A DNA stretch of 64,000 nucleotides. Source: Dipteris shenzhenensis. Lineage: Eukaryota. Of this stretch, positions 4,707 through 61,932 are shown one piece after another. The position numbers and the translations under genes are program-made. How positions within the stretch are numbered: position 1 is the stretch's first letter; each line of letters begins with the position of its first letter. A model generated the notes under the pieces. The model was not told where the DNA came from and ran no database searches. It saw nothing but the letters and a program-made list of their open reading frames with translations. Location: NCBI GenBank assembly GCA_047967505.1, contig CM106538.1. The stretch is one strand, 5' to 3'.

Positions 4707-5920
4707 TGAAAAATGGAAAATGAGACAATAGGTGGTAACTCCATTGTGAGGTAGTAGAGAATCTCCATTTTCTAGATGTAACATCAAGTACATACAACCA
4801 TTTAAGCACAGTAAACAATCACCAAAGATGCACATGAAAGGAAAAGCCATTGCCTTGGCAAACCCCAAAAAGAGATTCAATGGTACAGAGATCCAACGTA
4901 ATTCAAGTAAAAAATAACCAACATCTCTCTATTGGATGTTGTCCACATTTTATTAAGCTATTATCTCTTTTCTTGTGAACTAAGTAGTAATGGATTACGG
5001 CATTTCTTTTTGCTGCATAGCTTGCCACCATTTTTAGATGCTATGGTTCAAATATTTTAATGTAAAGGTATGCAATTATTGAGGAGTACTCTAAATTCAG
5101 CTTGATGGTTCAAGTAGAGAGGTCTACTTGGACTGATACTCGTCTCAAAGAAATGGTTGTTGTCTATGGCTGTATGCTCAATATATATAATTTGCAAAAA
5201 AATTGTGTGTTCTGTTTGGGGCATGAATCAAATCGTTGTACATATGAAATTTCATTAAGAGCATAAATGGGGTGACTGATTGATGTGATTGGAACTATGT
5301 AAATCAAGAATTGGCAACACAGACTGGTAACTGAATCCATAAGTAAACCAAAATTATCCTTGACCACCATGCCTTTATTTATGCAACACTCAAGCTGTAC
5401 ATTGTCTAAAAGGAGGCATACTTTCACATTGACACCAAGGTGACATCTAATTTCTTCAAAGGACGGAAGGGCAGTCCTTCAAAGCTCTTTGCATAGAATA
5501 AACTCTCAGGCACTCAAAAAGGCTACTTTCAAAGGCTAATTAGTCCACTTCGCTGGCCTCAGGGTCAACCAGAGCTCAAATGTGGACAATGCTGACTTCT
5601 TTAAAAAAACAATCAAGCACCTGTCTTTATTATACTTTTTGCAGAATACAGTCTGCAGGATAACAAAAACTTTACTTCCAGGTAAATAAATATATACATG
5701 TATATGAATCTCTCCTTCTCAACCAGTCTATACTTTGCATGATTTCCAAGGCTAAAGCATCACTGCCTCAAATAGGTCAAGAAACAAAGATCCCTGCTTC
5801 CTTGAGATTCAACACTCTGAGAAGATCTACTCATCATCTAAGGAGAAACACTTGCACTTTACAAGAGAGGTACTACCAGTAAAACATATACAAATAGATG
5901 GAAACCTCTGTTTGAGGAAC

Positions 5921-6426
5921 TCATACGAATTTTCTCTCCTTCACACACACACAATGAACTGAAATGAGATTTAGGCACCCACTTATGTTCAATGAGTGCC
6001 TTTCTGAACAGGTATGCAAACCAGGGAAGGCATTGCACACGGCCTGCACTGCTGGAGCTGACAAATATGTACACATACCAAGGTTTAAAGAGATTAGACC
6101 ATATCCCTCTTGTTCATTGAAGAGAGACTCGAAATAATCACGACTAGTCACAGTATTGCCATCAATATTGCTGCTGCAGCTACTGCTGCTGCTGCTATTA
6201 GTGCTGCTGCTACTACAGCTTCCGGTACTACTCCTGGTTACAGCAATATGAGTCGCAACATTCAAAGTGTTGCGTATGCTGTCCCTCTTCAGGATGGCCT
6301 TACAATTTCTGTACTTGCTACTATTTGCCAATGCATACATTGCAGTATCCGTGATATTTACACAGCTGTAAAGACCCAAGACTCTCAAATGATGGCACTT
6401 GTCAGCCAAGGCAATCACACTCTGAT
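5921..6426 (-). CDS. SKP2: SKP2-like F-box/LRR gene, last coding exon (exon 5)
   Basis: Encodes DQSVIALADKCHHLRVLGLYSCVNITDTAMYALAN...SAPAVQAVCNAFPGLHTCSERHSLNISGCLNLISVHCVC, which matches the plant SKP2A/B C-terminus. AG acceptor at 6428-6427, phase 1 (G|AT = Asp), stop at 5923-5921. Confidence 0.93.
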
Positions 6427-6523
6427 CTGAAAAAACAAGGTCAAGAAATTCAATTAAAACCAGGCATACAACCAGTCCTGGACCATCCACAATTTTCTCT
6501 CTTTAAAAATCAAGAAAGATTAC

Positions 6524-6665
6524 CTGTAATTAATAAGCAACCACACAAGTCAACAATCCTGAGTTCTGAGCACCACAAAGCTAACCCAGTCAGTCCTACA
6601 TCCGTGATCCTGTCGCACCAGCCCAGATTTAGGGACTGCAGGGCAATACAGTTTCGTGCCAGAGC
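6524..6665 (-). CDS. SKP2: SKP2-like F-box/LRR gene, exon 4
   Basis: Encodes ALARNCIALQSLNLGWCDRITDVGLTGLALWCSELRIVDLCGCLLIT. tgcAG acceptor at 6667-6666 and GTaatc donor at 6523. The 142 nt length gives phase 0 in and phase 1 out. Confidence 0.93.
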
Positions 6666-6750
6666 CTGCATTGACAAAATACCTGTATCAAGGTCTTGCC
6701 TGATGATAAATGCAAAAGGCAAGGAAGAGCCATACTGGCATACGACTTAC

Positions 6751-7102
6751 CAGAAGAGCTTGGTCAGACCCTGCATCACTACAGCCACAAAGATTGAGAT
6801 GCATGAGATTGCTGCAATTCTCAGACAGAACAGTGAGCCCAAACTCTGAAGTTCCAACACAGCCACTTAAGTTCAATTTCTCAAGCATCCGACATCCACG
6901 AGCCAATGCAAAAAGCGAAGCATCTGTAATCAAGGTGCCATTTGAAAGGTCCAAGGCCCGAAGGTCATGACAATGATTCGCAAGTGCTTGAACTGCTTGG
7001 TCATTCAAATAGAGTCGATTGTTGAACCGCAAGTTACAAACCTGCAGCCGAGTGAACTTTGGGGCCACTGACTGCACCAGCTTACTTGTATTCCGCTTAC
7101 CC
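6751..7102 (-). CDS. SKP2: SKP2-like F-box/LRR gene, exon 3
   Basis: Encodes GKRNTSKLVQSVAPKFTRLQVCNLR...ALANHCHDLRALDLS...LNLCGCSDAGSDQALL. tAG acceptor at 7104-7103 completes the split Trp codon (TG|G). GTaagt donor at 6750. Length 352 nt. Confidence 0.92.
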
Positions 7103-7221
7103 CTATTATCATCCAATTCATTAAATGGTAAGTAAATAACATTTTTTGTAACATGCAACGGTAATCTGATCGTGTAATTCACAGCAAGACCTTCTTTAAA
7201 CCTTTAGCAAGGAATGAGCGT

Positions 7222-8342
7222 TGTTTACCATAGAGAGAGAAGGGAGATGAGGGTAGAGAGAGAGTAGAGTCGACAACCGATTGGGTCCCTGTACCCACTG
7301 AGGGCCCCCTCCCCCAATCAAGGGAGAATTTGCTTTACACTTGGAGAACTGAGAGATACAAAGAACACTCTTAAGAGAGCACGGAACGCACTTCTGAAGA
7401 GCTCACTGTGCACACGTATAGCAGACCCAAAGACCTAAGAGGCAACGCTGACCAATACCGAGACCTTGATGCTGTCCACACTGACGATGTAGGATGCTTC
7501 TGCAAGGCAAGGGAGACGCTTGTGCTGTCTACCGGAAATGCAGGGTTACTGCGTGAGTGAGAGAGTGATAGCTGAGAGTAATAGATGCTAAGAGAGAGCT
7601 GAGATATGACTGAGAAACTAGAGCTAAGAAGTAGGCTGTGTAGCCTATAAAGAAAACTGAGAAAAGCTGAGGAGACAATGTCCAAACCTCTCTCTGTTTG
7701 CTGGTCCAAATGTCCGACTGTTGTGCTGCGTGGACACCTTCAGATCAGGCTGAACTGATGGCCAAGGGACTGAGGCTAGAGCAGGGCCAGAACTGAGGAT
7801 CTCAAGGGCTGCACAAGGAGGCTGGAGTGGAGCTTGTAGGAGAGCTGAAGGCAGGAGCACTGAATGAGGAAAGAGGGCAGCCAAGGGGCCCTTTTATAGG
7901 GCTGGACTGAGCCAACCCAATCTGTAAACAGCCGACTGAGTCGGTCTGTTTTACAGACTGGTTGGCCTACAACCAGCCTATAAAAAGCCCTCCCTGGCTC
8001 ATTTGCCAAGGGAGTTTTTGGGCAGCCTTTGCAGGCTGCCTTCCCTGCTTACCTGTCCAGCCTTTGGGGACCCTAAAGGGACTCCTAACCTAGGCTAAGA
8101 CCTAAACTATAAGATGGAGAAACTTAACCTACTGTTCTCCAATGGGTACTAGTGAACAAGAACGAACTTACTGACTTGACCTAAGGCTGAGAGACTCACC
8201 TACGTAGCTTGTGCCTGATTGTCCCTGGACAAGGGCTCACAAAGGGGTCACATCATACGACAAAATCTCCTGGGAACTATAATGCACTTGTCGATGTAGC
8301 CAGTGTGTCACCTTGCACCCAAGTGCAGGGGTGCATGTGACA
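7222..8342 (-). repeat. 3' LTR of the rearranged gypsy element
   Basis: Begins TGTCAC on the minus strand right after the PPT (AGGAGGGAA). TATA CCTATAAAAG at about 7890-7900. The left boundary is approximate (7215 or 7222). Confidence 0.75.
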
Positions 8343-8781
8343 TTCCCTCCTTAACTTGGCGGTAGGTTCATTGCTTCCAAGTAGTCCACCAATATCTGGG
8401 GAAACTCCTGGAAAAAATCTTCGTCTAACCACACTTCTTCATGGGTACCTCGATCATGCAACTTGGTGTAAAACTCACGGATCCTGCGTCCTGACCCATG
8501 CTTGAATTTATGAAGAAAGATCTGTTCTGGCTGCAAAACTTCGGCTTCATCAAGAACTTTAGGTTGTTGCTCGTCAGAAATCTCTGAAAGAGAAGGTCCA
8601 AAATATGGCTTCAACCAAGCTACATGGAACATGTTGTGCATAGTCCAACTGTCTGGTAGGCGTAACTTCATTGAGACATCGTTGATCTTTTGAATAATAG
8701 GGAATGGTCCAAAGCTCCTGAAGGACAGCTTAGGGCATCGCTTGCCCACCTACTTCAATCGTTGCTTGATAATGCGTAAAT

Positions 8782-9086
8782 ACACCCATTGACCCTCTTT
8801 ATACTGGACATCTCGTCTGGATTTATTAGCTTGGCGTGTATACGATGCTTGAGCTTTGGCAATGCGGCTTTTCACGAACTCCGTAATCTCTGCCATGGAT
8901 TCAGTGGTTTTGTTGGCTTCAAGAGATGGAGACACCCATTGACCCTCTTTATACTGGACATCTCGTCTGGATTTATTAGCTTGGCGTGTATACAATGCTT
9001 GAGCTTTGGCGATGCGGCTTTTCACGAACTCCGTAATCTCTGCCATGGATTCGGTGGTTTTGTTGGCTTCAAGAGATGGAGACACC
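8782..9086. repeat. 150-bp in-frame tandem duplication within the integrase C-terminus
   Basis: SPSLEANKTTESMAEITEFVKSRIAKAQA.YTRQANKSRRDVQYKEGQWV occurs twice. ACACC microhomology at 8782, 8932 and 9082. About 3 substitutions separate the copies. Confidence 0.95.
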
Positions 9087-12000
9087 ATCCGGGTGAGGAG
9101 TGAGGTAAATCGCCGTCCAAACGCCGCTTCATAAGGTGTGCGACCAATACTCGAAGAATAGGTATCGTTTAGAATGGCCTGCACAAGCGGAAGAAACTAC
9201 TCTCACTTTTCCTGAGCATCATGACAATATGATTTCAAAATATCAAATGCCATACCATTGTACTTTTCCGTCTCGCCGTTCAATTGCGGATGGAAAGCGC
9301 TGGACATCTATAGCTTAGTACCAAAATTATCAAACAAGGCTCACCAAAAGTTAGACGTAAACTTGGAGTCCCTGTCGGATGTGATGGTCTTTGGTAACCC
9401 TCCGATGGGATACCAATACTTGATAAACAAACGAGCTACATCTTTAGCGCTGGCCGTTTGTTTGCAGGGAATGAGCATACAATATTTACTAAAGCGACAA
9501 ACAATAGTAAGACATTGAGTATTACGCGTACCTACGGATGCTGGAAGTGGCTCCACGAAATCCATACATATGTCCTGGAAAGGACCGTCAGGGATTGACA
9601 ATGGCATAAGTAAGCCTGCCGCTTTCTTGTGGGAAGCCTTGACCTTCTGGCATATTTGACAATTCTGCACATACCCGTATACGTCCTTCCGCATCTTTGG
9701 CCAATAGAAATAGCGCTCTAACTTCTCCAAAGTCCCGTTGATACCTCTGTGACCACTGGTAAGGGCATCACGGGCATCATGAAGAAGCAACTGCGGTTTG
9801 TCTTTGAGTACACATAACCTTTTCTTATAGAAAAGCCAACCGTCCTCTAATGAGTAATGGCCTGGAGCAAGCGTCGTAGCTAACTAGAACTGCGTGCCAA
9901 ACTCTGTTGACTCTGCGTACTGTGCCTTCATGCTATCAAGATCATTTCCTTTAATTTCGAGCACAGTGGCCTACTCAATGGTTTGGATGGAACCTTCTCG
10001 ATCATTCCCCCATGGATCATCCCAAGAGGCAATCTTCATAACTGGTGCTGTCGTGGCCAACCATTGCAAGTCGTGGAAGGCCTGCAAAGCTTTGCCTGTG
10101 ACTTGAACTTTTTGTCTGCGTGTCTTTACCCCCTTGAGTAAATCTGTAAGAGGGACTGCGTATGTTGAGAAACCCTCCGCTCGATCCACATCTGGGAAGC
10201 GCAGGCGTCATCACAATCCGGTGGCCGCATGGGGGACTGAGCCCCCAAGATGTGATTGACATGCATTGAGATCGTGGGCACTTCCGTTGAGCTACGGGTG
10301 GTGGCAGAAGACGCCATGCTGAGCAGCAGCACCACCAGGACGTGCAGAAACCCGAAGGAGGAGTGGAATTGTAGGAGGAGAAACATGGTGATGATAGTCG
10401 TCGGTGTGCTGCTGGGCGTTTGTCAATCTGCTTGCTGGTAATCAAAGACGCTAGCAATGTCACCATAGGGGCAATTTTACAGCAAGAGAATAGGCTCGTG
10501 GCATACTACAGCAGAAAGCTTAATGATGCCGAAAAGAACTATTCAGTGTATGATAGAGAGCTTCTCGGTGTCATTCAGGCATTAAAACATTGAAAGCCTT
10601 TCCTAAACGGACGGACTTTCACGGTGAAGACAGATCACCAAGCCCTTTCACGGTGAAGACAGATCACCAAGCCCTTAGTGGCTTCAGACAATGCCTAGTA
10701 CGCAATGGATTAACCTCAAGAGTGGCTACCATCAAGTCCGGAATTTTAAAGCTGACATCCCAAAGACAACTTTTCGAACTGAGCGAGCTTATTACGAGTT
10801 CGTCGTCATGCCCTTTGGTCTTAAGAATGCAGCACCAACATTCAACAAGATGATGTCCTGGGTATTCGCAGAGTATATTAGGAAGTGCCTGTTCATCTTT
10901 CTCGATGATATCCTTATCTTTTCCACGACAACCGAGCAGCATCTTAAGGATGTGCGATGTGCCCTACAGTTATTACGTGATAACCAGCTATATCTCAACG
11001 CAAAGAAAAGTGAATTCGGATTGTTGGAAATTCAGTATTTAGGCTACATCATTAGTGCTCAAGGGATTCGATTAGACCCTGAGAAGATCCAAGCCATCAC
11101 AAGTTGGGTTATCCCCACGATGGCCCAGGAGATCAGATCCTTTGTGCGTTTGTGTCAAGCATACAGCTCACACATGCAGAACACCCCCATCGTGACCCGT
11201 CCGTAAGGTATGTAATCGTCCAAGCTGGCTTTGCTAGGCTGGGGTCTTGCTGCTGGAGGTGCCTCTTTGAAAAAAATCTTGCACCATTGAGTCTTCCAAG
11301 ATGTACTCGATGCGGGGCATAGGAAACTTGTTGCTTACCGTAAGCTTGTTGAGTGCTCTGTACTCGACACATAGTCGTGCGGACTTATCCTTCTTTGCCA
11401 CAAATAGAATGGGTGCAGCAAAAGGCGAAGAAGAAGGTCTAATAAACCCTGCGCGCACTAATTGAGATGTGTTCTAACTCCCCCTCCATAGACATTGAAA
11501 GTGGGAACTTACTTGGAGGTGTCGAGTCCGGAAGTAGATCAATGCGATGGTCTTCCAATCCGTTGGGAGGCAGCTGGGGTGGCAGATCGTCCCGGAGCAT
11601 GATATTTTTGAACTCTTAGAGTAGATCCACCATTGCCTGCCCCATCGGAGGAGCGGCTTGAACTGCAATGATTTGGCATTGGACATAGACAAGTGCACAC
11701 ATGGCACCCTTGCGGGCGGCGCGACCTGCTTGAATATGAGAGATTAATGAAATCCCTAGTATGCTCCGATCACCGCGTATCACGGCGGGCTTAGGTAAAC
11801 CTTCCACAATCGTGAAGGTGTCCTGCCGCCAGTCAGGCGTCGGAACATGCTCACAGAACCACTGAATCCTGAGGATCATGTCACACCCCATCAAAGGAGT
11901 CAATATAAAATCCCGCGTAAACATGGCCTTCTGAACTGAAAAAGTGAACTAGATGGTCTTATGCATGATGTGTGTGCGCAAGCCGGGCATAAACCCGTCC

Positions 12001-12419
12001 ACTGCAAGCTCGTGAGGCACCAAGGTACACCCCACTGTCTTGACAAGCTGAGGGGAAATGGCATCTTCTGAACTCCCCATATCGAACAGGATAATAAACT
12101 GATGCCCGTTAGCTGTGCCGTACGCTCGAATGAGCGCCTTCTTTTGATCTGAGAAGGCAGCAAAATGGAACATGTTTTAAGCAATTTACGACTTTTGCAT
12201 CTTGGGAAATCCAGTATTGTGCGAGTTTACACATAGTTCGAAGTGAACAATGCTGTAGCAGTTCCCCATACGATAATTTCAGCAAAGCCACATTAGGATT
12301 TTTCACTTTTTTGCACATATTTGAGTAAGGGATAGGCCTTTTCTTCGCAAACAGCATGCCCTATGTTTAAAAAAAGTTCAATGGCACTATCAATTATCTA
12401 GTCATCATTGCTCTTGATT

Positions 12420-13500
12420 GGCCAGGAAGATAATGGACGCCACAACTCCTCCATGATGTCAAGAAAGTAGAGATGTCTGCAGTAAATTAGCTTTGAAAGG
12501 TGAGATGGCATCCTAATTATTCCCACTTAGGAGCATGTCATCAACATAGAAAGGAGCACAAGTAGAACACCATGATCCTCTTTAACATAGTGGGTGCTCT
12601 CAGTTGGACTGTTTCTAAATTTTTGGCTGACCTAGGCATGTATCTTTTCATACCAAGCTCATGTATCTTTTCATACCAAGCTTTGGGAGCTTGTTTGAGA
12701 CCATAAAGCGCTTTTCTCAGCTTACACACCTTGGTTTTCAGACGAGACAAATAAGCTGATTCACAAAAACTTCTTCCTACAAATCCCCATTTAAGAAGGC
12801 TGTTTTTATATCAAACTGATGCACATTCCATCTGTGCTGGGCAGCCAATGCAGATACACATCTGATGGTGGACAGCCGAAAGAAGGAGCAGAAGTCTCTA
12901 CAAAATGTATGCCCTTCTATTGAGCATAGCCTTTAGCCACACGTCTGGCCTTCTACTTGTCATTGGTACCATCAGACTTTCCCTTGAGTTTGTATACCGC
13001 CAATGGGCTCCTTGCAATGTGGCAGATCCACTAGATCCCATGTGCCATTTTTATAAAATTGCATTCATTTCCAATTGCATGGCTTCTTGCCAATGTTCAT
13101 CTTCTCGAGTTTCTTCAAATGAAACTGGTCCATTTGTACATAGATAGTGCTCATACAGGCCACTGCTGCATGGTCTCTAGCATTTCTTGCACCATCCCAT
13201 GTTCTATTGGGTAGACGAGCTGAGAATATGGAACTGTTCTAGCTTGTGCATGGCTGCTCTCTCTTCATGTACTGCTTCCTCCACTTCATGGCTACTATGG
13301 GAGTAGACCTTCAAACATATCTTGTGGGTTACTTGTTATCTGTGTACTGAATTAGCAAGTGGCCGAGGCGAATTCTCTACCAAAAAAACATCTATGCTGT
13401 CAAAGATCCTCTGCTTACATGGATCAAAGAGACGGCACCCCTTACTGCCACTATTGTAACCCCAAATATGCATTTGATAGTCTTGTCATCTAATTTGCCA
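12420..13500 (-). mobile_element. Degenerate Ty1/copia pol fragment (integrase C-terminus to RT)
   Basis: Copia motifs GKLDDKTIKCIF, WQEAMQLEM, QFDIKTAFLNGDL and KLRKALYGLKQAPKAWY, with stops and frameshifts. Confidence 0.85.
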
Positions 13501-15400
13501 AGGCTAAAATAATCCTGAGATAGTCAACCTGGTCAAAATAAAATATTTTCTCTCTACTTCTAGAAATAAATATAACTTTGTGACATCCCCTCGTCTTTAT
13601 TTAGTTGTCCCCAATTGAAAGGCTTCTTTACACATTTGCAGGACCTGTGGGTATTCTAAGAAATAATCTTCATCTAGTGCCGAATAAATCTTAGACTTAA
13701 CAAGATACCTGCGAAAAACTTTGCCTTTGGGACCTCTCTTTTTCGTGTGATAGACAATCCGCTTTAGTCGAGGCATCTCCTCAAACTCATCCACCTCTAG
13801 TGGTTCTTCTAGAATCAGTTCAGTTGGCTCAAGCCCTTTGTACTTTTTCAAAAGACTCACATGGAATGCATCATGAATCTTCCGATGCTCGGGTAGATCA
13901 AGCCTATAAGCTACCTCCTTTATCTCCCTTGTGATCTGAAACTTTCCATAATACCTGGTGAATAGCTTTGGATACACATATTCCTTACCCTTCATCTTTC
14001 GGTGCCTAGTCCTTTCAAACTTGAGGAGCACCCAGTCACCAATCTGAAGGTCTAGCTGCCGCCGATGTTTATCTACAACTTTCTTACTTGAGATCTTGCA
14101 ATTGCTTTCTTGACCTGTTCAAGGGCTATTTCCAGATCTCACACATATTGATCAGCAGCAAAAATTTCATCTTTTGTCCTTAGGATGGGTGGAAGAATTA
14201 CCTTACCATAGACTACTACGAAATGTGCCTTTCCTGTGGAGTTGTGGATGGTGTCGTCATTTGCAAACTCCACCAGAGGAAGATATCTTTCCCACTCAGC
14301 CCTCTGGTCAGGCACATAACATTTCAGCAAACCCGAACAATGGAATTAGCTATTTCACTTTGCCAATCAAATTGGGAATGAAATGAAGAAGAAAGTCAAG
14401 CTTGGTTCCCTTATTATCAAATAAAGCTCTCCAGAAAAGACTCATCATTCTGGGATCTCAATCACTGACTATGGACTTAGGCATATTGTGCCAAAAACAG
14501 TTTAGCCATATGATCAGCCTCAATGGTCTTCCGTACAAGTATGAAATGAGCTTGCTTACCGAATTCATCAATGATCATTCAAATTCTATCATTACCCTGT
14601 CTCGACCTCAAAAGATAAAAAATCAAAACCATGGCTATGTTCTCTCAAGGTGTGTGAGGCACAGGAAGAGGAGGTGTCTTATGCCAGTCATATTTCACCT
14701 TTTGATCACCTTTTGACAAACAAGGCATTCGGAAACAAATTGATGAATATCTTTGTGCATACCTGGCCAGAAGAAATACCTCTCTAGACCCTGTGTAGTG
14801 GAAGTGATCCCTCTATGACCTAGGTGCATAAGGTGGCACATGACACTTTTTCATAGTTTTCAGCCTTAGATTTCTAGAAACACGCAAGCAATCATTTTTC
14901 ATAAGATAGCCATATTTCAAAGAATAATGGCAGGTTGGTTCACCCAGTTGCAATCTTTGCATAATTTTTCCAAAATTTGGATCTTGTGCATACTGTGCCT
15001 GCATCTGTTTTATGTCCTCGTGATAAGCTTTAGTAACATTATTCACCTAAGGCCTCCGAGATAGGGCATATGCCACTCTGTTCTGCACGCCTGGTGTATG
15101 AACAATTTGAAAGTGGAACATGGACAAGAAATTATATGCTTCTTGGAAAGCTTGCTCTGGGCCAAGAAATACTTAAGACAAGTGAGGCTCCCAGACAACC
15201 CCTAAGAGGAGAAGGAGATAGGCCATGCCATGATGTAGATTTTGAAAGTTGGGGAGACTGAGCCATAGAATGGGTGGGCCCTTTGGACACCCAATGCCAT
15301 TCAACACAGCAGTGCAGAGCTTCAAATATAGGCATTGAGACATAGGCAGGCCCTCTATGAGCGAGAGAAATCACTCATGAGACGGTGTTGGCTCTATAGA
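13500..15400 (-). mobile_element. Truncated Ty3/gypsy chromovirus (RNase H, integrase, chromodomain, PPT and a short 3' LTR stub)
   Basis: RYYGKFQI..IHDAFHVSLLKKY plus chromodomain at 13597-14031; WERYLPLVEFA..IHNSTGKA integrase motif; ALSRRP RNase H end near 15055. PPT at 13586-13595 adjoins TGTCAC at 13585. Confidence 0.85.
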
Positions 15401-15698
15401 AAGACTTCAGGGGTAGGAAAGCCAACGATCGATAGCAAAAACTGGATAGCAGATGGCATGCCAGTTTTCCCTAACCATGGGCCCTAGATCAGCAGGGACC
15501 CACAGTAGGACCCACCTCTAACAGTCAAGAGATGAGGATCCACTCTGCAGGAGGTTTTGGTTTCCTTTATAGATAGCTTTTCCACTTAGAAGTGACCACC
15601 CCATTAAAAATCAATTGCTCAATGAGCATGGATTTTCTTGATCATAAATGAAGAAAGATATGACTCCATTCTTCTGGTCATCAACCTCTAAACCAACA

Positions 15699-17629
15699 TG
15701 CAATCTCCCTGCTGTTTTTTTTCTGCTACCTTCCTTTACTCTCTCTCTCTCTCTCTTTCTTTAGCTCTCTCTTTCACTCTCTCACTCTACACAGTACTAG
15801 GGCCCAAGACAACAGTCCAGCTGGACCCCCCCGAAGAATTTTATTACTTGAGAGAAGAAGGAATACATAGTTCAGCGTAGAGCTGTGTCTTACAAATTCA
15901 AACGTGAATTCATTTTACAAGAGCTTCAAGCTCATTCCAAAATGGCAACATGCCACTCGTCTAAAAACTAGACTAAGCCCTATTACATGCCTCTAAGGGC
16001 AATTTCTGAGATCTTCATAGCACTTGGTCACGCGGGTGGCCTCCGAAAATACTTGCTACGCTCCAAATTGCTTGGGTCTTTAGCCCCTCATAGTTACCTA
16101 CAACAATTAATTAAAGCGCACCACCATGGCACCCATTAATTGTTAGCGCTTTGCATGCAAATAAGAAACTGTGGACTAATCCTAATCACAGGTGGGCGTC
16201 CCCACTGAACAAACATGTGAACAAAACATAGAACACAATTCTTGGTCGACCGAAGTCAACCCTCTTGGTCGTAATTAAGGAGCTTTGACCAATGGTGGTG
16301 GTGTTAAGCCAGGCAATCTCCAATTCTCCAGGACAAGATAAACAGGTACAAACACCACTGGTGCCTCTCCAAATCCTGTCAAAGAAACCCCGAATCGGAG
16401 GCAAAAACCACAACCAAAGAAATGTCAAAAGCCCCGGTTCAGAGGATAAACCAAATAAAAAAATTATTTAAAAAAATGTTTTTTTTCTGGTCTGACCAGA
16501 TCTGGCCGACCAGATTGACCTGGTCGGTCAAATCTGGCCAGGTCGGTCAACCTGTTGGTTGACCGACTTAAAGCTCCTTCCTATTTGAAGGGGGGGGGGC
16601 TAGGTATTCAAATATAATCTCTCTTCCAGCTCCAGAGGTTCCTGCACACCCTGAGCCACTTCTGCCTCCTGGCTGCCTCCTCTGCTGCCTCAACTTCTGC
16701 CTCCTCTGCTGTCCTCTTTTCTGCTCCAGATATGCCCTCTTTTCTGCCCCAGATCTGCCCCTCCTTTCTGCTCAGATCTGTCCTCCTTTCTGCTCCAGAT
16801 CTGTCCCCTTTTTCAGCTCCAGATCTGCCCTCTTTTCTGCTCCAGAACAGCCTTCCTTTCTGCTTCAGTTCTGCTCTCCTTTCTGCATCAGATCAGCTCC
16901 AATTTCTGCTCCAGATCTGCCTTCTTTTAGCTTCAGATTTGTCACAACTTCTGCTCCAAGATCTGCCCTCAACTTCTGCTCCAGATCTACCTCCAACTTC
17001 CGCTCCAGATTCTGTTCTTTCTATTCCAAATCTGCAGCAACCCCTGCATCAGTTTGCTGTCTCAGATTTGGTTCAGTTCCAACTTGTGGAGCTAGTGCAG
17101 AAGTCCACTACAGTTGTCAGGACTGACGTTTGTTTCCTCCAGAGCTTCTCTCATATCTTCACTTGTACTGAGTTCCGTTTGTGATATATATATCTTCTTC
17201 AGCCATTGATTGTCTTCAGTATTGTTTTATTTGTCTCCAAGTATTTTCTTTATAGGTGGCGCCTTAATTATGGCCAAGTCTCTCCAACCAAAGCTGGAGC
17301 ATCTCTCCAACCGAAGTTGGCACAACTTGGTTAACTGAAGTTAACCCTCTTGGCGCATGCCAAGTCTCGTTGACCGAAGTCAACACTCTCTGACCGTAGT
17401 CAGCTCTGTGGTTCTCTGGTTAACCGTAGCTAACCTTCTTGGTAATAAACCAAGTCTCCCCGACCGAAGTCAGTCTTACTTGACCAGAGTCAAGTATCTT
17501 TGACCGTAGGAATTCTTTGACCATTAAAAGAACTCTTTGACCATAATTAACACATATGAAAACTCTTTAATTATGATCAGATAAATGGTCAACTGTACTT
17601 TGACTAAGGATATTTACATTGTGGTGACA
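15699..17629 (-). mobile_element. Solo LTR (about 1.93 kb) with 5-bp TSD CAACA
   Basis: TG at 15699 and CA at 17629. CAACA at 15694-15698 and 17630-17634. Contains degenerate tandem arrays (TTCTGCTCCAGATCTGCCC at about 16640-17060; GACCGAAGTCAAC at about 17280-17540). Orientation is inferred from the TGTCAC terminus and a minus-strand AATAAA. Confidence 0.7.
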
Positions 17630-19351
17630 CAACATGCAAATGGTTGGTGTTCTATCAGTGGCAAACTAGATTGTGAATTTTGGCTACTTGGATTACCAAG
17701 ATTCATGGTCTTCAACAAAGATATGAGATGTATGAAATTTGGACTACGATATTTGGTCAAAAAAGAGTTGACCTCATAATGAGAAGTGGGAATAATCTTA
17801 AAAAATGGATGATCAAATGGAAACCAAACCCTCAAATGCATGGTTACCGTTGTTGAAGTTGGCCTATGATGGAAAAAATAGTCATCCACAAAAAAAGACT
17901 CCATTTTAGCTAAACTACAATGGATATACTCCACAAAGTTGTGTAGCATTAGATTGCATATTCGAGATCCATGTTGTTTTAGCATAGCAAGATCTATAAT
18001 CCACAAGTCCATGGAGAGGTATGTGGCTAAGAGATTATCTTTTGGGGAATTTCAGAAAGGATCCTCATAGCAGAGTCATTGATCATAGGCCAAATGTGCT
18101 AAGTTGTCACCCTAATATTGTGAGCCCTAACGAATTGTCAAGAAGGTAGGCAAGACAGTCAATATATTGGAATTATCATAGGGTTGCAAGGGTTCATCAA
18201 TATGTCATGTTTCTCGATTACAATGGCCTTACAACTAAGTAATTCACTTATTGAAGGGAGTTTCATACACCTGGATCTATTTAGAGAAATTTTTAGAGAT
18301 AACATAGAGTCGTTTATTGTAAACTGACAGAGTACATAATTATGAATATGGTGCGGAGTGTGTCCGTAAATTTATACTCACAATGTCCTGGGTTATAATG
18401 TTGACCCAATGATCAAAGATTGTTTCTGATAGTCCTTGATGCCAGATGTAAGAGGAGTGAGTGTCCACAAGTTTAAATAACATGGATCCATAAGGACTAA
18501 GGAATTGAGCCTAAGGCGTGCGTCACGAGAGGTATGGTGACCTTGTAGGAGCCATGGATGCCAAGTGGTATGAAGTCTATAGAGTACACTTCGTGAGGCA
18601 CGTGACATCTTTAACTCCCTCATGTTCGCGATTGACAATGTATCTCAGATTCCTCATAAGGTGGGAGAAATGTCAGAAATAGCCAGATCTCATGCACCCA
18701 TTAGTTCGATCAACAATTTTCTTAACTAGCAGTTACATCAGATATAAAAGCCAGATAATGCCCACAAAAATAGTGATAAAACCAGTGGATCCACACTGCA
18801 TTTTGATTAGCACAGGTCCCAATCTTCCAAGAACATCTCAGGTCACAATAACTTAAGCCAGTTCAAACAATAGACTTTTGATAGAGACTCTGCAATACCC
18901 AGTACACAAGTAGAAAGCAATCCAAACCACTGCATACTCACCGAGAAGCTTGCTTGTTCTGAATTGTAATATTGTGTACAGACAATGCCAATTCTCATGA
19001 GTCAAACGGGGACTATGTTTTTGTCCTCAACAACACACATTAATTTCGGGAACACACGTGTGCAAATGTACGCGCACACCCAAAAACTTTAAAAGTATGT
19101 TACGAAAGATATTAGTTAACTTACCTTACCAATTAAATAACTACGCTAACAAAGTCCAAGATGTTAGAGTTTAATCCCTGGCAACATTTAATTTGTGGAA
19201 ATTAAAACCAATTAATGCGATGAACAACTGCTCTCATGACGTTATGAAACTGATTTTTTAAGAATCTGGACGTATGGCACACATAAGTGAACACAAACAT
19301 TCAAATTACTAGGTGCACACATGTGCATAGGGGCATTAGTAACAGGAATAC

Positions 19352-19748
19352 CATGCAAATGACAGCTCTAAAACGCCAAAGCATATTGCATCTCTCCATC
19401 CAGTACAGACACCACATGCCACAACAACTGTCCGATGATCCACCAAAGCTAGAATTCGCACAAGCAACTCCATTGGCAGGTCTTGCCACTTGGACTCCAC
19501 ATTGTTGCTGCTGCTTAGATCTTCATTGAAGGTGCAGTCAAAGATATCTTTTTGAGGATTCGATTTCCATTCGTATTTCAAAGTCCCCGATGTTGAATCT
19601 ATTTCACTTGCCATTGCCACCCAAAACAAATTAGAAGCTTCCGATGAGTCTTGAGATCTACTTCTGGATTTTACTTTATCTTTCGTACATTGAGACACTC
19701 CTAACAAGTCATCGCCAAAGTCGGCCCCAGAGAGCTCCTCCAATTGAC
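19352..19748 (-). CDS. SKP2: SKP2-like gene, exon 2 carrying the F-box domain
   Basis: Encodes the SKP2-type F-box WQDLPMELLVRILALVDHRTVVVACGVCTGWRDAICFGVLELSFAW. tgcAG acceptor at 19750-19749 and GTattc donor at 19351, phase 2, matching exon 3 across a 12,249-bp intron. Confidence 0.9.
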
Positions 19749-20346
19749 CTGCATGCATGGAAAGAGGTTATAAGCAAGTAACAAGCAAAGTAAATAAAAA
19801 TGCACTATGGTGATACACGAATAACAAAAAACTGTGAGGGGACAAAACATCTAGAATTCCTCTTCTCAGATTCAAGTAAAGGCAACCTACCCAAGCTTCA
19901 CATAATACTCCAAACTCAACAAGCCCAAGAATTTAAAAACAATATAATGGATGAATCACATCCATCCTTAGGAAAAATAAGTGCAAGTACACGAATACAA
20001 GAAATTTCAAGCAATGGATTCCCTTGATGTCTATATCCTGTGAACTAAGATCCCAGCCTCAATAAGCTGGTCCATCACTCGCTCTTCATTTCTTCATTGT
20101 ACTATTTAAGGCTCTCCTTTCAATAATATACAAGAGACTAAATGAAAATATTTAGCCATGAGCAAAGCAAACTCAACTAAAAATTGACTCCATTTTGTCA
20201 AGCTATCATGTCATGGTTATCCTTTCAACAAGATTGCTTAGACTTTGGCACTCGGATGATATCCCTCCAAAAGATTATCTTTTATCCCAACTTTGTGCCA
20301 CAATTTGACACACAAATCCTCTGTCTCTCTTATATCTTACTGCATG

Positions 20347-22190
20347 TGTAAACTACTCGGTGCTTTCTATCAATTCAAACAACGGATTTTGCAGAGGCAT
20401 TTGAATGAGATGATTGCGAGTTGCCAAACACATATACTTGAACTTAAGAGTTTGCAATTAAGCTGGAATTAAGACTTATACAGCTTAAACACAAAGTGAC
20501 ATCATTGGAGAATGCAATATGATTGAGGGGCCAAGACGGGCCCCCCCCCTTATCCAGGCTCACTTTATTCTTGAAAATGGAGATACAAGACCAAGGTGCA
20601 ATGCACCTTCCAAACTAATGAACCCAGTGAAAACCTAGGACCTAGATACAAGACTCAGGAGCATATGTACAAGGTAGACAACAAAAAGGAGGACTCCAAG
20701 CTCAGGTTTCAGCTCTTGGCTTGCCCAATCCACAAGGAAGAAGCCTGCAACAATCACCACTTACATCCAACATTAGAGATAAACACTAGTTTCTAGAAAG
20801 ATAGTAGAAACAACATGAAATAGTGCTGTAAATGAGATAAACTTGACAATACAGGCTCCCTTCGTGACTTGGCCCTTTTGTAGATGAAGTCCTTGATGCC
20901 TCTGAAGCTACCTTGGGTGAGGAGAGTGTGGAAATGGGGCTGGAATGAGAACAGCTTAGAAAAACAGCCTGTAGGCTAGAGAGAGAAAGCTTTTATGGAG
21001 TGATAGCTGTAGAGAGAGTGTGCCTATGCTGATCCCAAGGGAGGAGATGTAAGAGAGGAGCTGCTGCTGTTCCAGAGGTGCACAGAAAGGCAGATTTCTG
21101 CAAGGGAAATGGGCTGGAACAGTAGAGAGAGAAATTCTGCAGTAGAGAGAGAAAGACTGCAGCAGGAGAGAGAAAGGGGCTGTGGCTGCTCCAGGCTAGG
21201 TGAAGGAGAGAGGATGCTGCTGCTGTTCCAGAAGAGCTGAGAGGGGGCAGATTTCTGGAGAGGAGGGGCTGGAACTGTAGAGAGAGAATGTGCTGTTGTA
21301 GAGAGAGAAAGTGCTGCTGAGGTGAGAGAATGGCTTGGGGAGAAGCTGGCTGCACCCAAGGAGCTGGAGAGGTTCTGCTGCATCATCTAAAAGGAGGGAG
21401 AAGAAAAGTGACGAAATTTTCATGTGTGGAATGAAGGGGAGAGGCCTTCTTTTATAGGCTCAGCCCCCCTCCTAGGCCTAGAGTGGAAGGTGGACACTTG
21501 TCCCAGATTTTTTTGGTGGGCTGCAGTCCCAAAGAGGACAGCCCACAACCTGCCCCAAATCTACCAGATTTGGGGCCAAACACTTGGCCTGCATGCCCTG
21601 CCACTTGCCATGCATGCTGCCACATGTGTGGGACAGGTGGACTGACCTGCCAGCTCAGATTCCAAGTGGCAGTCTGCCACGTGTCAGCTGCCACGTCACT
21701 CCCAAAAACCCTAAAATTTCAAAGTTGTCAGAATTTAATTCTGATCGCACACACGGGTTCCTAACAGCTTAGACTATCTATTGACGTACTCTAAGGTCAT
21801 AATTGAGCCATACTGAGCTCATTTGTTTGTCGTCTTATCTTGTATCTCCATTACTCTTGGCATGCTGCCAGGCCCACACCCAAAGCTCAGGGAACATTCT
21901 CTTGAATGGTTCCTAGGTCGGTATGCAATCTGTGCATTTGATTGGTCCCATGTTTGGGTACTCAGGTGGGGTGTGGTTTCTAGATGTCCCTCTCAAAGAG
22001 AGGCCATCACTCTTGTGGATCACTAATGCCCATAACCCCAAGCAAGGGGGTCCACCCTCAAATGCTAGACCTAGTCCCCATTGTCCGTAACTGAACAGAA
22101 GGAAAACATTTCATTTCTTAATAAGCATACTATTGAAAAACAAAAAGAAATAGTACCAAGCAAGTGGATACATGTTGAAGCAGGATGACA
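20347..22190 (-). repeat. 3' LTR (1844 bp)
   Basis: Nearly identical to 25549-27383 and adjacent to the PPT. TATA GCCTATAAAA at about 21451-21460. CACGTG/ACGTG boxes at about 21676-21700. Confidence 0.97.
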
Positions 22191-22203
22191 TTCCCTCCGT
22201 CTT

Positions 22204-23762
22204 TCATTCGGTTGTCCGCAACTGAAATGCTTCCTCATAAGCATCCAGGATTTCAGGACACTCCTGAAATGTAGCTCTGTCCACCCATTGGGCATCGGTG
22301 GATGGGAGCCCTCTGAACTTCCAAAGGTACATTTTGCGAGTCGTGCCTCGACGTCCCGTAGTGAAGTTATGCAAAATAATTTGCTCTGGGATCAACAAGA
22401 TCTCAGTGTCCTCTACTTCAGGTGCATCGTCCAGTGTGGGCTCTTGAGGTGGTTCCCCAATGAAGGGTTTCACCAAGCTTACGTGGAAGACATTGTGGAT
22501 CTTCCAATGCTCTGGAAGTCTCAATCGGACCGAGACATCATTTATTACCTGCAACACCTGAAAAGGACCATAATATCGAAAGGATAGCTTGAAGTAGATG
22601 CGCTTTTTGCCCACTTTGGTTTTTAACCGGGCTTTCTCAAATTTCAATAAGACCCATTGGCCTTCTTTCACTGCAAACGCCCTCCGTCTTTTATTTGCAG
22701 CTGCTCTTTGTTTCTCCTGTGCCTTTTGAATGGCTGCTCGAACCGTGGCATAAGCAGAGTCATAATCCTTGCATGACCATCCTGGGTAAGAGAAGCCCCA
22801 AGGCAATCGCCACTGGCATCAGCTGCTACTAGGAATGGTTTCCTTAAGTCAGGAATGATAAGTACAGGAGCTGTAGTCAGGGCATGCTTTAGAGCATTAA
22901 AAGAGTCCTTTTCTTTTTGGGTCCATCTGAACTTTAGATTTTTCTTAGTGAGATCATGTAGAGGAGCTGCAAGTTCAGCAAAATGCCAAATAAACCTTCG
23001 GTAATATGAGCATAGGCCTAGAAAAGACCTTACCTCATGGGCATTCTTCAAGTCAGGCCACTCTACAATTGTCTGTATCTTGGCTAGGTCCATACGGACA
23101 CCTTCTCGTGAGATAATGTGACCAAGATAGTGAATCTTAGGAAGAAAGAACTCACTTTTCTTCTCATTGATGTAAAGAGCATTTTCAGCTAAAATTTGAA
23201 ATACAATCTTTAGATGTTCCTTATGCTCTTCCTCATTCTTGCTAAAAATGAGGATGTCATCAAAGAAGACGGCAGTGAACTGTCTATAGTTCCTGAACAA
23301 CCGTTCCATCAGTCGATTGAACGTGGCTGGGGCATTAGTAAGGCCAAATGGCATTACCATATATTCATACAGCCCAAATGTGGTTCGGAAGGCTGTTTTA
23401 TGAATGTCCTTGGTACAACTCATACCTGATGGTAGCCACTCTTAAGATCTATGCGGCTGAAAATTTCAAATCCTCCTAAACGATCAAAGATATCGTCTAT
23501 ACGAGGAATTGGGAAACGATTCTTAACCGTCTGTTTGTTTAAGGCTCTATAGTCTATGCACATCCTGAAGGTTTTATCCTTCTTTTGGACTAGTAAGACA
23601 GGAGAGCAAAAAGAAGAACTACTGGGTTGGATCAATCCCTTGTCCAAGAGTTCTTGGACTTGCTTGAAGATTTCATCTTGTTGAGATTGACTAACTCTAT
23701 ATGGGGGTCTATTTGGAGGTGAAGACCCTGGAACTATGTCAATTTTGTGATCCTCTGGTCTC
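22204..23762 (-). pseudogene. pol: Disrupted pol: RT, start of RNase H, then integrase C-terminus and chromodomain
   Basis: RT motifs [18 protein letters not shown] and FFDDILI. Frameshift at about 23763; stop plus frameshift at about 23420. At about 22770 the RNase H motif ADASGDCLGASLTQDGH is fused to the late integrase. Confidence 0.9.
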
Positions 23763-25484
23763 TCAGAGGTGACTAGGAAGTTCTTGAGAGAAGCAATTAG
23801 AGAATTCCTCAAGGAAATCTAATCTTTCTTTTGTGAGAGGATCTGACTTTTCTTCACTTGGTTGCTTATCGCGTACAAACACTAGAAAAGAACATACTCC
23901 TTTCTTAAGCAAATTGGGAGATCGTGCATGACTTACCATAGGAATGGTGTTTCCTGAAACTCCCGCTGTAATGCTCACATCTCTACCCTTATGTTGGAGG
24001 GTTAGAATATTCTTCACATAATCGATTCGGGGGTTGACTTGCTTATGCCAGGGCATGCCAAGAATTACATCTGATCCTTGAAGTGGTGCCACCATGAAGG
24101 GTAGATGATCCAAGTACCCCTGGATGTGTACCCGAAGCTTGCCGATGATGGGGTACACCTTCTCTTCTTGGTTCTTGAAGGCTGCAGTTGCCTCCAAGGC
24201 TTCTCCTTTATCCTCTGGGGCTATCCCCAAGTTCTGTGCCATCTCATGAGAAATAAAGTTGTGAGTAGCTCCACTATCGAACAAAAACAAAGCGGATTGA
24301 TCCTTTACCTGACCCCATGTTTTCAACAAACTATGGGTGTCATTTACAGCTCCCTTTTCCGGAGATGCTTCCACCTTGTTGACTACCAAAACTGGCTTTT
24401 TGAGGGCTGCTTCTTTGTTGCTGTTATTTTTGGCAGCTTGAGGGCATTCGTAGAAGTTGTGGCCTCGATCGCCACACTTGAAACACCGCCCTTCAGAGTA
24501 ATACTTTTGCTTCTGTTGTGGAGACAATGAGCTGAAAGTGCGGGCTGCTTTCTTCGAAGGAGGCTGGCTGGCTGACTTTTGCTCTTTTGGTGCATCCTTT
24601 GCTGTCTCCTTACCCTTTTGTTCCTTGGAAGAGGTTCCCTGGGACTTACGCTTGTTGTTGCTGCCATTCCGCTTGTTGGAGAAAGATTGTTTCTTCTCCA
24701 CCTTCAAGGCGATGTTGATGGTGTCTTCGAGAGAAGTAGGAGTGGCAATGTCCACCTCATGCTGAACGATATACCGTAGGCCAGCAAAGAACTTCCTTTG
24801 CTGCTCTTTTTTATCCTTCCTACTGAATGCTTGAACTTTTAACAAAGTATCCCAAAAACGATCAACATACTCACTGACTTTCTCTTCTTGGCGTTGGCGG
24901 AGGATGTCCCACTGCACCATTGTATCTCTCTTAAACTCCTTAGGCAGGAAGTGCCTCATCAAGTTCTTCTTGAAGTGCTTCCAGGTGTGGGCTTGCTGTC
25001 CAGTGTTGACCATAGCTGCCCACCAGAGTGAAGCACGGTCTTGCATGTGCAGGACGGCAAACCGGATCTTCGCCTTGTCTTCGTACTCGTCCCCATCAAA
25101 GAAATACTCGAGGTCTCGGATCCAGGCCAGCAAGACCTCGGGCTTGTCCTCTCCCTTGTACTTGGTAAACTTGAAGAGCTTATCTCCAAGAGGTACCTTA
25201 TGCTTTGCATACCTTCGTCTCCGTGGACGTCTCGAAGGAGATGGACTCCGATGACGCCGTCTATCTCGAGGAGGGAAAGAAGAGGATGATCTTCCCTCCT
25301 TGTTGGAATTGGTGTTGTCCGCACGGCCTCTTCCTTGGGATTGGGGCCCTATGTCATGAGTTCCTGCTTGGCTGCTTTCCAGCACTTGAACCTGTTGAGC
25401 AATGTTTGCCAAGACAACACTCAACTCATGCAGGTTAGGAGGAGGGTCAGGTCCATTGGCTGCCATGATGACAAGATAACTCAA
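23763..25484 (-). CDS. gag: Retrotransposon Gag plus aspartic protease (uninterrupted 573-aa ORF)
   Basis: Retrotrans_gag-like core ([18 protein letters not shown]), CCHC knuckle [14 protein letters not shown], protease motif LFDSGAT. Confidence 0.9.
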
Positions 25485-25548
25485 TGAAGGAGAGACTCAA
25501 CAAGAGAAAGCACAGAGTACAGGACCACTGCCTAAGCTCTGATACCAA

Positions 25549-27383
25549 TGTAAACTACTCGGTGCTTTCTATCAATTCAAACAACGGACTTTTGCAGAGG
25601 CATTTGAATGAGATGATTGCGAGTTGCCAAACACATATACTTGAACTTAAGAGTTTGCAATTAAGCTGGAATTAAGACTTATACAGCTTAAACACAAAGT
25701 GACATCATTGGAGAATGCAATATGATTGAGGGGCCAAGACGGGCCCCCCCCCTTATCCAGGCTCACTTTATTCTTGAAAATGGAGATACAAGACCAAGGT
25801 GCAATGCACCTTCCAAACTGATGAACTCAGTGAAAACCTAGGACCTAGATACAAGACTCAGGAGCATATGTACAAGGTAGACAACAAAAAGGAGGACTCC
25901 AAGCTCAGGTTTCAGCTCTTGGCTTGCCCAATCCACAAGGAAGAAGCCTGCAACAATCACCACTTACATCCAACATTAGAGATAAACACTAGTTTCTAGG
26001 AAACAACATGAAATAGTGCTGTAAATGAGATAAACTTGACAATACAGGCTCCCTTCGTGACTTGGCCCTTTTGTAGATGAAGTCCTTGATGCCTCTGAAG
26101 CTACCTTGGGTGAGGAGAGTGTGGAAATGGGGCTGGAATGAGAACAGCTTAGAAAAACAGCCTGTAGGCTAGAGAGAGAAAGCTTTTATGGAGTGATAGC
26201 TGTAGAGAGAGAGTGCCTATGCTGATCCCAAGGGAGGAGATGTAAGAGAGGAGCTGCTGCTGTTCCAGAGGTGCACAGAAAGGCAGATTTCTGCAAGGGA
26301 AATGGGCTGGAACAGTAGAGAGAGAAATTCTGCAGTAGAGAGAGAAAGACTGCAGCAGGAGAGAGAAAGGGGCTGTGGCTGCTCCAGGCTAGGTGAAGGA
26401 GAGAGGATGCTGCTGCTGTTCCAGAAGAGCTGAGAGGGGGCAGATTTCTGGAGAGGAGGGGCTGGAACTGTAGAGAGAGAATGTGCTGTTGTAGAGAGAG
26501 AAAGTGCTGCTGAGGTGAGAGAATGGCCTGGGGAGAAGCTGGCTGCACCCAAGGAGCTGGAGAGGTTCTGCTGCATCATCTAAAAGGAGGGAGAAGAAAA
26601 GTGACGAAATTTTCATGTGTGGAATGAAGGGGAGAGGCCTTCTTTTATAGGCTCAGCCCCCCTCCTAGGCCTAGAGTGGAAGGTGGACACTTGTCCCAGA
26701 TTTTTTTGGTGGGCTGCAGTCCCAAAGAGGACAGCCCACAACCTGCCCCAAATCTACCAGATTTGGGGCCAAACACTTGGCCTGCATGCCCTGCCACTTG
26801 CCATGCATGCTGCCACATGTGTGGGACAGGTGGACTGACCTGCCAGCTCAGATTCCAAGTGGCAGTCTGCCACGTGTCAGCTGCCACGTCACTCCCAAAA
26901 ACCCTAAAATTTCAAAGTTGTCAGAATTTAATTCTGATCGCACACACGGGTTCCTAACAGCTTAGACTATCTATTGACGTACTCTAAGGTCATAATTGAA
27001 CCATACTGAGCTCATTTGTTTGTCGTCTTATCTTGTATCTCCATTACTCTTGGCATGCTGCCAGGCCCACACCCAAAGCTCAGGGAACATTCTCTTGAAT
27101 GGTTCCTCGGTCGGTATGCAATCTGTGCATTTGATTGGTCCCATGTTTGGGTACTCAGGTGGGGTGTGGTTTCTAGATGTCCCTCTCAAAGAGAGGCCAT
27201 CACTCTTGTGGATCACTAATGCCCATAACCCCAAGCAAGGGGGTCCACCCTCAAATGCTAGACCTAGTCCCCATTGTCCGTAACTGAACAGAAGGAAAAC
27301 ATTTCATTTCTTAATAAGCATACTATTGAAAAACAAAAAGAAATAGTACCAAGCAAGTGGATACATGTTGAAGCAGGATGACA
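25549..27383 (-). repeat. 5' LTR (1835 bp)
   Basis: Adjacent to the PBS. Differs from the 3' LTR by a 1-bp indel, a 10-bp indel and about 6 substitutions seen by eye. Confidence 0.97.
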
Positions 27384-30800: not shown

Positions 30801-31321
30801 CCGAGACATGAAGACCACGCACGGTGCAGAGGTTGACCAAAACACACAGGATGGAGGTCCAACCTATCTCAGCTCTAAGCAAAGGGGACTGTCAGGGTCG
30901 AGGTGTCACCCTTGATATGGCCCACCTGATGCAGAGATCATGGGGGCCACCGCCCTATCACAGCAAGAGATGACCCGGCAGAATCAGATATGAGATATCT
31001 TCACATCCCACCGGAGGGGGCTGCCATGGCACCAAGATCATAGATGATAGTCGGTCACATCTACCAGAGACATGAAGACCACACACCATGCAGAGGCTGA
31101 CCAAAGTACACACGATGGATGTCCAACCTATCTCAGCTCTAAGCATAGGACTGTCAAAGTTGAGGTGTCACTCGATATGGCCCACCTGATACAGAGATCA
31201 TGGAAGCCACTGTCCCACCACAGAGAGAGATGACCCAGCAGAGATAGATATGAGGTATCTTCACATCCCACCAGAGGGGGCTGCCATGCCACCAAGATCA
31301 CAGATGATAGTCGGTCACATC
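30801..31321. repeat. Two tandem copies of a unit of about 260 bp
   Basis: GAGACATGAAGACCAC...GATGATAGTCGGTCACATC starts at 30803 and again at 31067. Confidence 0.9.
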
Positions 31322-60849: not shown

Positions 60850-61340
60850 GCACCCTCACCCATCACTCCTCTCATAGTCAAATTTATTGGCTTTGTTGTG
60901 GTAAAACCTTACCCAACATGCAAGATATTGGACCAGTCAATCATTTCACAAGCACAATGAACACTCGTTGTCTCATCATCTTCCTCTTAGGTTCTTGCGC
61001 TTCAATTATGGTCCCATCCTACCCTAGAAACTAATTACAAGCACTGTGATCTTTCTAATAGAAACCATTCTAACCAATTAAGAAAAAAAATCTAATACCC
61101 TAGAAACTAATTACAAGCACTGTGATCTTTCTAATAGAAACCATTCTAACTAATCTAATAGAAACCATTCTAATTAATCAAGAAAAAAATCTTGGCAACT
61201 CACCCATCACTCTATGTTCACAATCTCATTTCTTTGGCTGCTGGTAATTGTGGTAAAACCTTTCCCCAAAATCAAGATATTGACCACCTCTGCAACAAGC
61301 ACAAGGAACACTCACTTTGTCACCCTCTTCCTCTCTTGAG
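60850..61340. repeat. Nested local direct duplications
   Basis: TACCCTAGAAACTAATTACAAGCACTGTGATC... at about 61020 and 61096. The segment 60850-61010 resembles 61195-61340. Confidence 0.75.
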
Positions 61341-61789: not shown

Positions 61790-61932
61790 ACTCTCATGTT
61801 CATCTTCTCCTTTCACTCTCTATTTCAATTAAAAGGCTCCCAAATCCATCATTCAGAGTTTCTTCTCATGTTCATCCTCTCCTTTCACTCTTGATCTCAA
61901 TTAAAAGGATCTCAAATCCATCATTCAGAGTT
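61790..61932. repeat. Tandem duplication of about 72 bp
   Basis: TCTCATGTTCATC.TCTCCTTTCACTCT...CAATTAAAAGG..C.CAAATCCATCATTCAGAGTTTCT occurs twice. Confidence 0.8.

Follow-up and report, generated by a model that had tools for sequence, protein, structure and literature searches.

Within a 64,000-nucleotide stretch of DNA from Dipteris shenzhenensis (assembly GCA_047967505.1, contig CM106538.1; hereafter the window), we found a decayed copy of a Ty3/gypsy (Metaviridae) LTR retrotransposon on the minus strand, in which about 1 kb of the pol region stands in a scrambled order, with the reverse transcriptase (RT) core and the RNase H inverted and two pieces of unrelated DNA among the fragments. 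On balance, the scramble would be accounted for by a single repair event that cut a dead, 5'-truncated copy at several breaks and rejoined the pieces. A Pfam scan of stop-to-stop open reading frames (ORFs) returned the gypsy-type domains RVT_1, RT_RNaseH/RT_RNaseH_2, Integrase_H2C2, rve, and SH3_Tf2-1. When the ORF of the RT core was searched among longer proteins, it led to an intact gag-pol relative, P0009 (1326 aa, 66% identical), the representative of a cluster that also holds P0122 (1622 aa), which is complete from gag (aa 1-484) to the C-terminus; P0125 and P0127 represent a second subfamily of relatives. The nearest proteins were the ENA records P0009 and P0122 together with P0121 and P0128 of Adiantum nelumboides. 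The likeness to fern Ty3/gypsy elements extends over the protease (PR), RT, RNase H (RH) and integrase (IN) domains (62-88% identity to the copy described here), whereas the present copy is without gag and 5' LTR and is frameshifted, duplicated, and scrambled. The PR-RT-RH-IN order on one strand is kept in P0009, P0122, and P0127 and is broken in this copy, whose rearranged pieces are 64-69% identical to P0009/P0122. The copy is a rearranged derivative within this family and not a separate family.

The pieces were mapped by tblastn of P0009 and P0122 against the window, together with local alignments to P0009 and P0127, and residue numbers follow P0009 unless stated otherwise:

7147 to 8350, minus strand: 3' LTR and untranslated tail of the element; contigs of relatives (sequencing runs X1-X4) cover 7147/7179-8271, loose contig ends pile up at 7147, and TGTAAC starts there.
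8351 to 10012, minus strand: segment G, comprising the linker, the integrase (zinc finger, core, SH3) and the C-terminal tail; aa ~970 onward, aligned from 10000 to 8357.
10013 to 10177, minus strand: segment E, the RT-RNase H connection; aa 799-852, aligned from 10177/10174 to 10013 with 66% identity.
10178 to 10431, no strand assigned: filler A, 254 nt, 57.5% GC; adjoins the D/E end of segment E.
10432 to 10708, plus strand: segment F, the RNase H; aa 853-935; inverted and moved across E.
10709 to 11179, plus strand: segment D, the RT core (palm and thumb); aa 642-798; inverted, 66% identical to P0009.
11180 to 11264, no strand assigned: filler B, 85 nt, 57.6% GC; adjoins the D/E end of segment D.
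11265 to 12173, minus strand: segment C, the protease and RT N-terminus; aa 329-641, aligned from 12140 to 11265, with two frameshifts.

Read along the strand of the element, the pieces run C, B, D inverted, F inverted, A, E, and G. The first-pass annotation had described a scrambled order with two inverted pieces, and tblastn, the alignments, and Pfam agree with it in placing the RT core and the RNase H on the plus strand, F ahead of D (RVT_1 at 10679-11206, plus strand, E 6e-22; RT_RNaseH at 10375-10593, plus strand; Integrase_H2C2 and rve at 9341-9883, minus strand; SH3_Tf2-1 at 8351-8749, minus strand). Weak protease signals were also seen by Pfam at 11616-12176 on the minus strand. The reading frame of segment D is open over its whole length and is fused in frame to F at 10708/10709; the join of E to G is likewise in frame. 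Segment G is collinear with the relatives (P0122 aa 1126-1621 fall on 10000-8357 by tblastn), and the four codons at its edge (10001-10012) are unaligned.

Parts of the earlier description had to be revised. It had counted seven segments of the element, of which the five pol segments were confirmed; the other two, A and B, are fillers and not part of the element. Segment G, taken to be linker, integrase, and chromodomain, does hold the linker and the integrase; for a chromodomain, no Pfam Chromo match was obtained on 8351-8749 at E<=0.1, the precomputed Pfam list of P0009 is without PF00385, and P0009 stops before that tail. The outer end of the element, previously set at 7222, moves to ~7147, where loose contig ends gather and TGTAAC begins. 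The 64-kb window contains no second copy of the LTR, so that a single LTR is present, and the gag of P0122 found no match in 6500-13500 by tblastn even at E<=10. The element is thus 5'-truncated at ~12173, with gag and the 5' LTR gone. When the gag region of P0009 was used as a query, two proteins were found, namely P0009 itself and Adiantum P0121, the latter matching over aa 229-321 only. The window is free of N and holds one copy of the scrambled gypsy at the DNA level.

We then examined the ends of the fragments. In P0009 numbering the ends are contiguous at 641/642 (C/D), 798/799 (D/E), and 852/853 (E/F), with no residue lost or repeated, and the overlaps at the junctions, read from the sequence, are 0-2 nt, in agreement with the earlier statement that these three pairs of ends abut without loss. 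Since the ends fit in this way, the inverted pieces are the very DNA that is missing from the minus-strand copy; the plus-strand pieces fill exactly what that copy lacks, which upholds the proposal that all pol pieces come from one molecule. What is absent is P0009 aa 936 to ~968 (~33 codons) following the RNase H, close to the 35 or so codons reported missing there before. Because each segment occurs once in the window and none is duplicated, the rearrangement is conservative except for this loss. At least five breakpoints fall within 10012-11265, and no inverted repeats flank the segments (four inverted pairs in 6500-13500, none of them at a breakpoint). The earlier argument that a single inversion is insufficient also holds, as F lies before D on the plus strand and a minimum of three reversals separates the present order from the canonical one; at least three inversions are needed even when an earlier insertion at D/E is allowed for. 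Such a distance is typical of random re-ligation: of the 48 ways in which three fragments can be arranged, 25 need three inversions. A search for proteins carrying the F/D fusion found none in a protein collection that apparently does not include this genome; the best near-length matches (62-70% identical) left the first 10 residues of the fusion uncovered. We saw no sign that the scrambled arrangement has a function.

Related copies provided an independent view of the original order. Contigs of the sequencing runs X1-X4 were aligned to 5900-12400 at >=85% likeness; the best-covering run shares 0.20 of the sampled window words. One X3 contig joins 10012 to 10435 on opposite strands, which corresponds to E/F, and an X4 contig joins 10014 to 10522 on opposite strands, skipping the first ~90 nt of F. 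Another X3 contig joins 10177 to 11176 on opposite strands, corresponding to D/E, with 64 letters on its shorter side. These contigs belong to two other organisms, and in them E is attached directly to F and to D with neither A nor B in between, so the relatives keep the normal order. The proteins P0009, P0122, P0125, and P0127 are likewise collinear across the breakpoints. Contig 24 of X4 matches 10436-10709 and then diverges from the window, which places the end of F at 10708/10709. X1 matches the exons that flank the element, differing at 2 of 1,022 letters, and lacks the introns; it looks transcript-derived and likely comes from the same organism as the window. Among the X1 pieces listed, 0 of 8 bridge a junction. 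In a further X3 contig, 9787 is linked to 10994 with a change of strand, which fits neither the canonical order nor that of the window; it may be a chance join or may stem from a different rearranged copy in the organism of X3. In X4 (8070-8503, 9589-9805, 11325-11541, and 11759-11975) the summed word depth reaches thousands on some parts of the element and is ~10 or less on several others, which suggests that the organism of X4 has parts of the gypsy family, or of families related to it, in very high number.

The two fillers had been read, less certainly than the rest, as pieces of gag, a reading that we reject. All six frames of each were compared with P0009 by Smith-Waterman alignment against 100 shuffles, and no frame rose above the shuffles (best z 1.47, equaled by 8 of 100). 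The full gag of P0122, unmatched in 6500-13500 as described above, gives the same answer, and Pfam, including Retrotrans_gag, found nothing on A or B. P0122 extends 155 residues beyond the N-terminus of P0009, so the N-terminal methionine of P0009 is not a true start; therefore, the apparent match of the "start" of the ORF in A to the start of gag falls away. The 98-aa ORF of A, the one frame searched in this way, had 0 matches at E<=0.001 among 1,835,955,588 proteins. An Rfam scan over 9900-11400 gave no match on A (10178-10431), and the sole match touching B (PVT1_7, minus strand, 11229-11365; E 0.12, with 22.4 bits where the gathering score is 80) is one that we take to be due to chance. 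A plasmid origin of filler A was considered and dropped, as its two 31-nt matches to plasmids are at chance level. Nothing similar to A or B occurs elsewhere in the 64-kb window, and inspection of the filler borders by eye revealed no Helitron, LTR, or terminal-inverted-repeat ends and no target-site duplications. The bin 10240-10456, which covers part of filler A, has a cover of 1.63 in X3 and 0.93 in X4; this is a hole in the contig cover and was not counted as evidence.

The fillers resemble each other in composition (GC of 0.575 for A and 0.576 for B, compared to 0.417 for the window and 0.437-0.485 for D, E, and F). Just two of the four junctions include a D/E end, and these are the ones where the fillers sit; two fillers can be distributed over four junctions in six ways, of which this is one. 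The equal GC content and the shared position next to D/E ends suggest one foreign source, and A and B probably derive from a common piece of DNA.

The same copy carries other lesions, among them two tandem duplications:

8782 to 9081, no strand assigned: 150-nt tandem duplication in the integrase C-terminal region; its two copies are 98% alike and double 50 codons.
10616 to 10673, no strand assigned: perfect 29-nt tandem duplication inside the RNase H, which causes a frameshift.

P0122 carries the 50 duplicated residues once, and an X3 contig skips 8871-9034, overlapping the 150-nt duplication. Contig 24 of X4 shows 28 gap letters somewhere over 10436-10709, which we take to be the absent second copy of the 29-nt repeat. 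These are signs, drawn from sequence comparison, that both duplications may be private to this copy or its lineage. One of the two frameshifts in segment C is explained by an extra T behind 11293 that the related contigs in X1, X3, and X4 carry. Because the 150-nt and 29-nt duplications, the frameshifts, and the 5' truncation are independent lesions, the locus has been damaged repeatedly. Across the 64-kb window we counted ~11 two-copy tandem duplications of 19-260 nt, these two included and several of them perfect (8782-9081, 10616-10673, 12637-12682, 29137-29175, 30803-31321, 41266-41446, 51818-51873, 61130-61179, and 61792-61935, among others). The frequency of such two-copy duplications may mean that repair in this genome commonly ends in this way.

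For the scramble itself, the sequence of events that we slightly favor would be as follows. About 1 kb of pol would have been broken by simultaneous double-strand breaks at ~5 closely spaced points, namely at C/D, at D/E or inside an insertion already there, at E/F, at the end of F, and ~100 nt beyond it. End joining would then have re-ligated the fragments in near-random order and orientation, giving the arrangement now seen, and a piece of ~100 nt would have been lost during the repair. The GC-rich filler piece might have been captured in the repair or might have been an earlier insertion at D/E that was broken in the same event; the latter is an equally good variant and, if the fillers are such an older insertion, there were at least two events. 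That the breaks belong to a single event is what we infer by parsimony from a structure known from one assembled sequence; the joining would have been non-homologous, and the rearrangement would have taken place in chromosomal DNA after the element had inserted.

The strongest competitor holds that the DNA of B and A was inserted at D/E and that three inversions and a deletion followed, re-using the same breakpoints. This stepwise history would make sense of the equal GC of the fillers and their position beside the D/E ends, and it suits a copy that bears several other independent lesions; it nevertheless appears unlikely to us, as at least three inversions are required even with the insertion granted and the breakpoints would have been re-used to within 0-2 nt each time without inverted repeats as guides. 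A different kind of doubt concerns the assembly, since the region is repeat-derived and the scramble might exist only in the assembled sequence. We hold an artefact to be somewhat less likely again, because mis-joins between repeat copies preserve orientation and collinearity and do not produce a conservative reshuffle, whereas the segments here (165-471 nt) occur once each, their ends are exactly reciprocal, and the two fillers are unique, in a window without N and without inverted or direct repeats at the breakpoints that could mislead an assembler.

The annotation had left two mechanisms side by side, namely fragmentation with religation and serial template switching. The former fits better; the latter, whether it took place while the element was being reverse-transcribed, prior to integration, or in the course of replication-based repair (FoSTeS/MMBIR), fits poorly and is in our view improbable. 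A single pass of template switching could yield both a complex order and inserted sequence, and the F/D and E/G joins happen to be in frame. Copy-choice, however, leaves duplications or gaps, whereas here nothing was copied twice and three pairs of boundaries are reciprocal to 0-2 nt; inverted copying requires a complementary strand, which an RNA template does not have; the fillers are without a template in the window; and the single LTR makes the state at integration unreadable. Comparison with published MMBIR/FoSTeS rearrangements (PMC2621351) leads to the same point, as the complex order, inversions, and inserted sequence are shared, whereas copy-number gains and microhomology at the switches are described there and single-copy segments with reciprocal ends are found here. 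The hallmarks looked for, duplicated segments and a filler template within 64 kb, gave negative results. Least credible of all is that copies of the family inserted into one another in opposite orientation and were trimmed by deletions: transposable element (TE) fragments are indeed nested throughout the surrounding intron, yet the plus-strand pieces complement the minus-strand gaps exactly, without overlap or gap, F precedes D in a manner non-collinear for a plus-strand copy, and the pieces are about equally far from P0009 (64-69%).

One multi-break end-joining event, the reading we prefer, has counterparts in plants. At biolistic transgene loci, sub-kb shattering and scrambling is documented, with joins that are blunt or have 1-4 nt of microhomology and with inserted DNA, and pieces <200 bp are common there (10.1101/379644). 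Larger chromoanagenesis is reported in Arabidopsis and Populus (PMC4461816, PMC8423247). With the chromothripsis-like cases in plants (haploid-induction crosses, irradiated Populus, and biolistic loci) the present locus shares clustered breaks, random order and orientation, some loss, joins that are blunt or of short microhomology, and inserted DNA; we found breakpoints clustered with random order and orientation, no copy gain, and segments that are either single or lost. The known cases range from kb to whole chromosomes and followed an experimental insult, whereas here ~1 kb and 3-4 fragments are involved, in a natural genome with no known trigger. A keyword search of the literature found no report of a naturally shattered LTR retrotransposon at this scale. 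With respect to the fillers, Gorbunova and Levy reportedly described in 1997 the insertion of filler DNA at plant double-strand-break repair junctions; the resemblance lies in unrelated DNA, tens to hundreds of nt long, at two of the four new junctions here. Patch-mediated tandem duplications are said to have been the subject of work by Vaughn and Bennetzen in 2014.

The surroundings of the element were also informative. An X1 contig matches 5900-7103 with two introns removed, and it runs on from 7103 into letters that are unique in the window, at 19353-19382. The removed introns end in CT..AC, which places the host gene on the minus strand, and transcript-like contigs in both X1 and X2 splice across the two small introns. 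The minus strand of 19339-19767 codes for an F-box domain. The host gene is therefore laid out as follows:

5921 to 7103 and 19339 to 19767, minus strand: F-box/LRR gene, with a 12.2-kb intron at 7104-19352.

Because X1 continues from 7103 to 19353 and the F-box is encoded at 19339-19767, the scrambled gypsy and other TE fragments lie in this 12.2-kb intron. The outer end of the LTR (7147) is 44 nt from the acceptor site, and the X1 contig indicates that the host gene is still spliced correctly across the element-bearing intron. A little upstream of the point where the scrambled element is truncated on its 5' side lie a copia RT fragment (RVT_2; 12541-12932, minus strand) with a perfect 23-nt tandem duplication and a third gypsy fragment (integrase and SH3; 13600-14820, minus strand). 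A second, different Ty3/gypsy element occupies 20996-26963 on the minus strand and carries gag, protease, RT, part of RNase H, SH3, and a chromodomain that Pfam confirms; repeat arrays of identical sequence, 5,193 nt apart, probably mark its LTR pair, and its integrase core seems to be deleted. Further along, 41955-44522 on the plus strand carries an uninterrupted ORF for an 856-aa PPR protein with an E motif, a gene that is indicative of a land plant.

What we describe is a single, probably inconsequential scar in a dead, intronic transposon. It is a well-resolved new example of a type of event that is already known, and it would gain in value only if a survey of the whole genome were to find such scrambles common. 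Its merit is that the original place of each fragment can be stated to the codon, by which the event shows itself to be cut-and-paste and not replicative, and this is a rare chance to tell end joining and template switching apart at the sub-kb scale. It is a long shot, though one worth stating, that germline break repair in this genome might naturally and repeatedly end in sub-kb "micro-shattering" with filler capture, alongside the two-copy tandem duplications. If that were true, dead retrotransposons, whose order is known from their proteins, would serve as a genome-wide ruler for counting such events.
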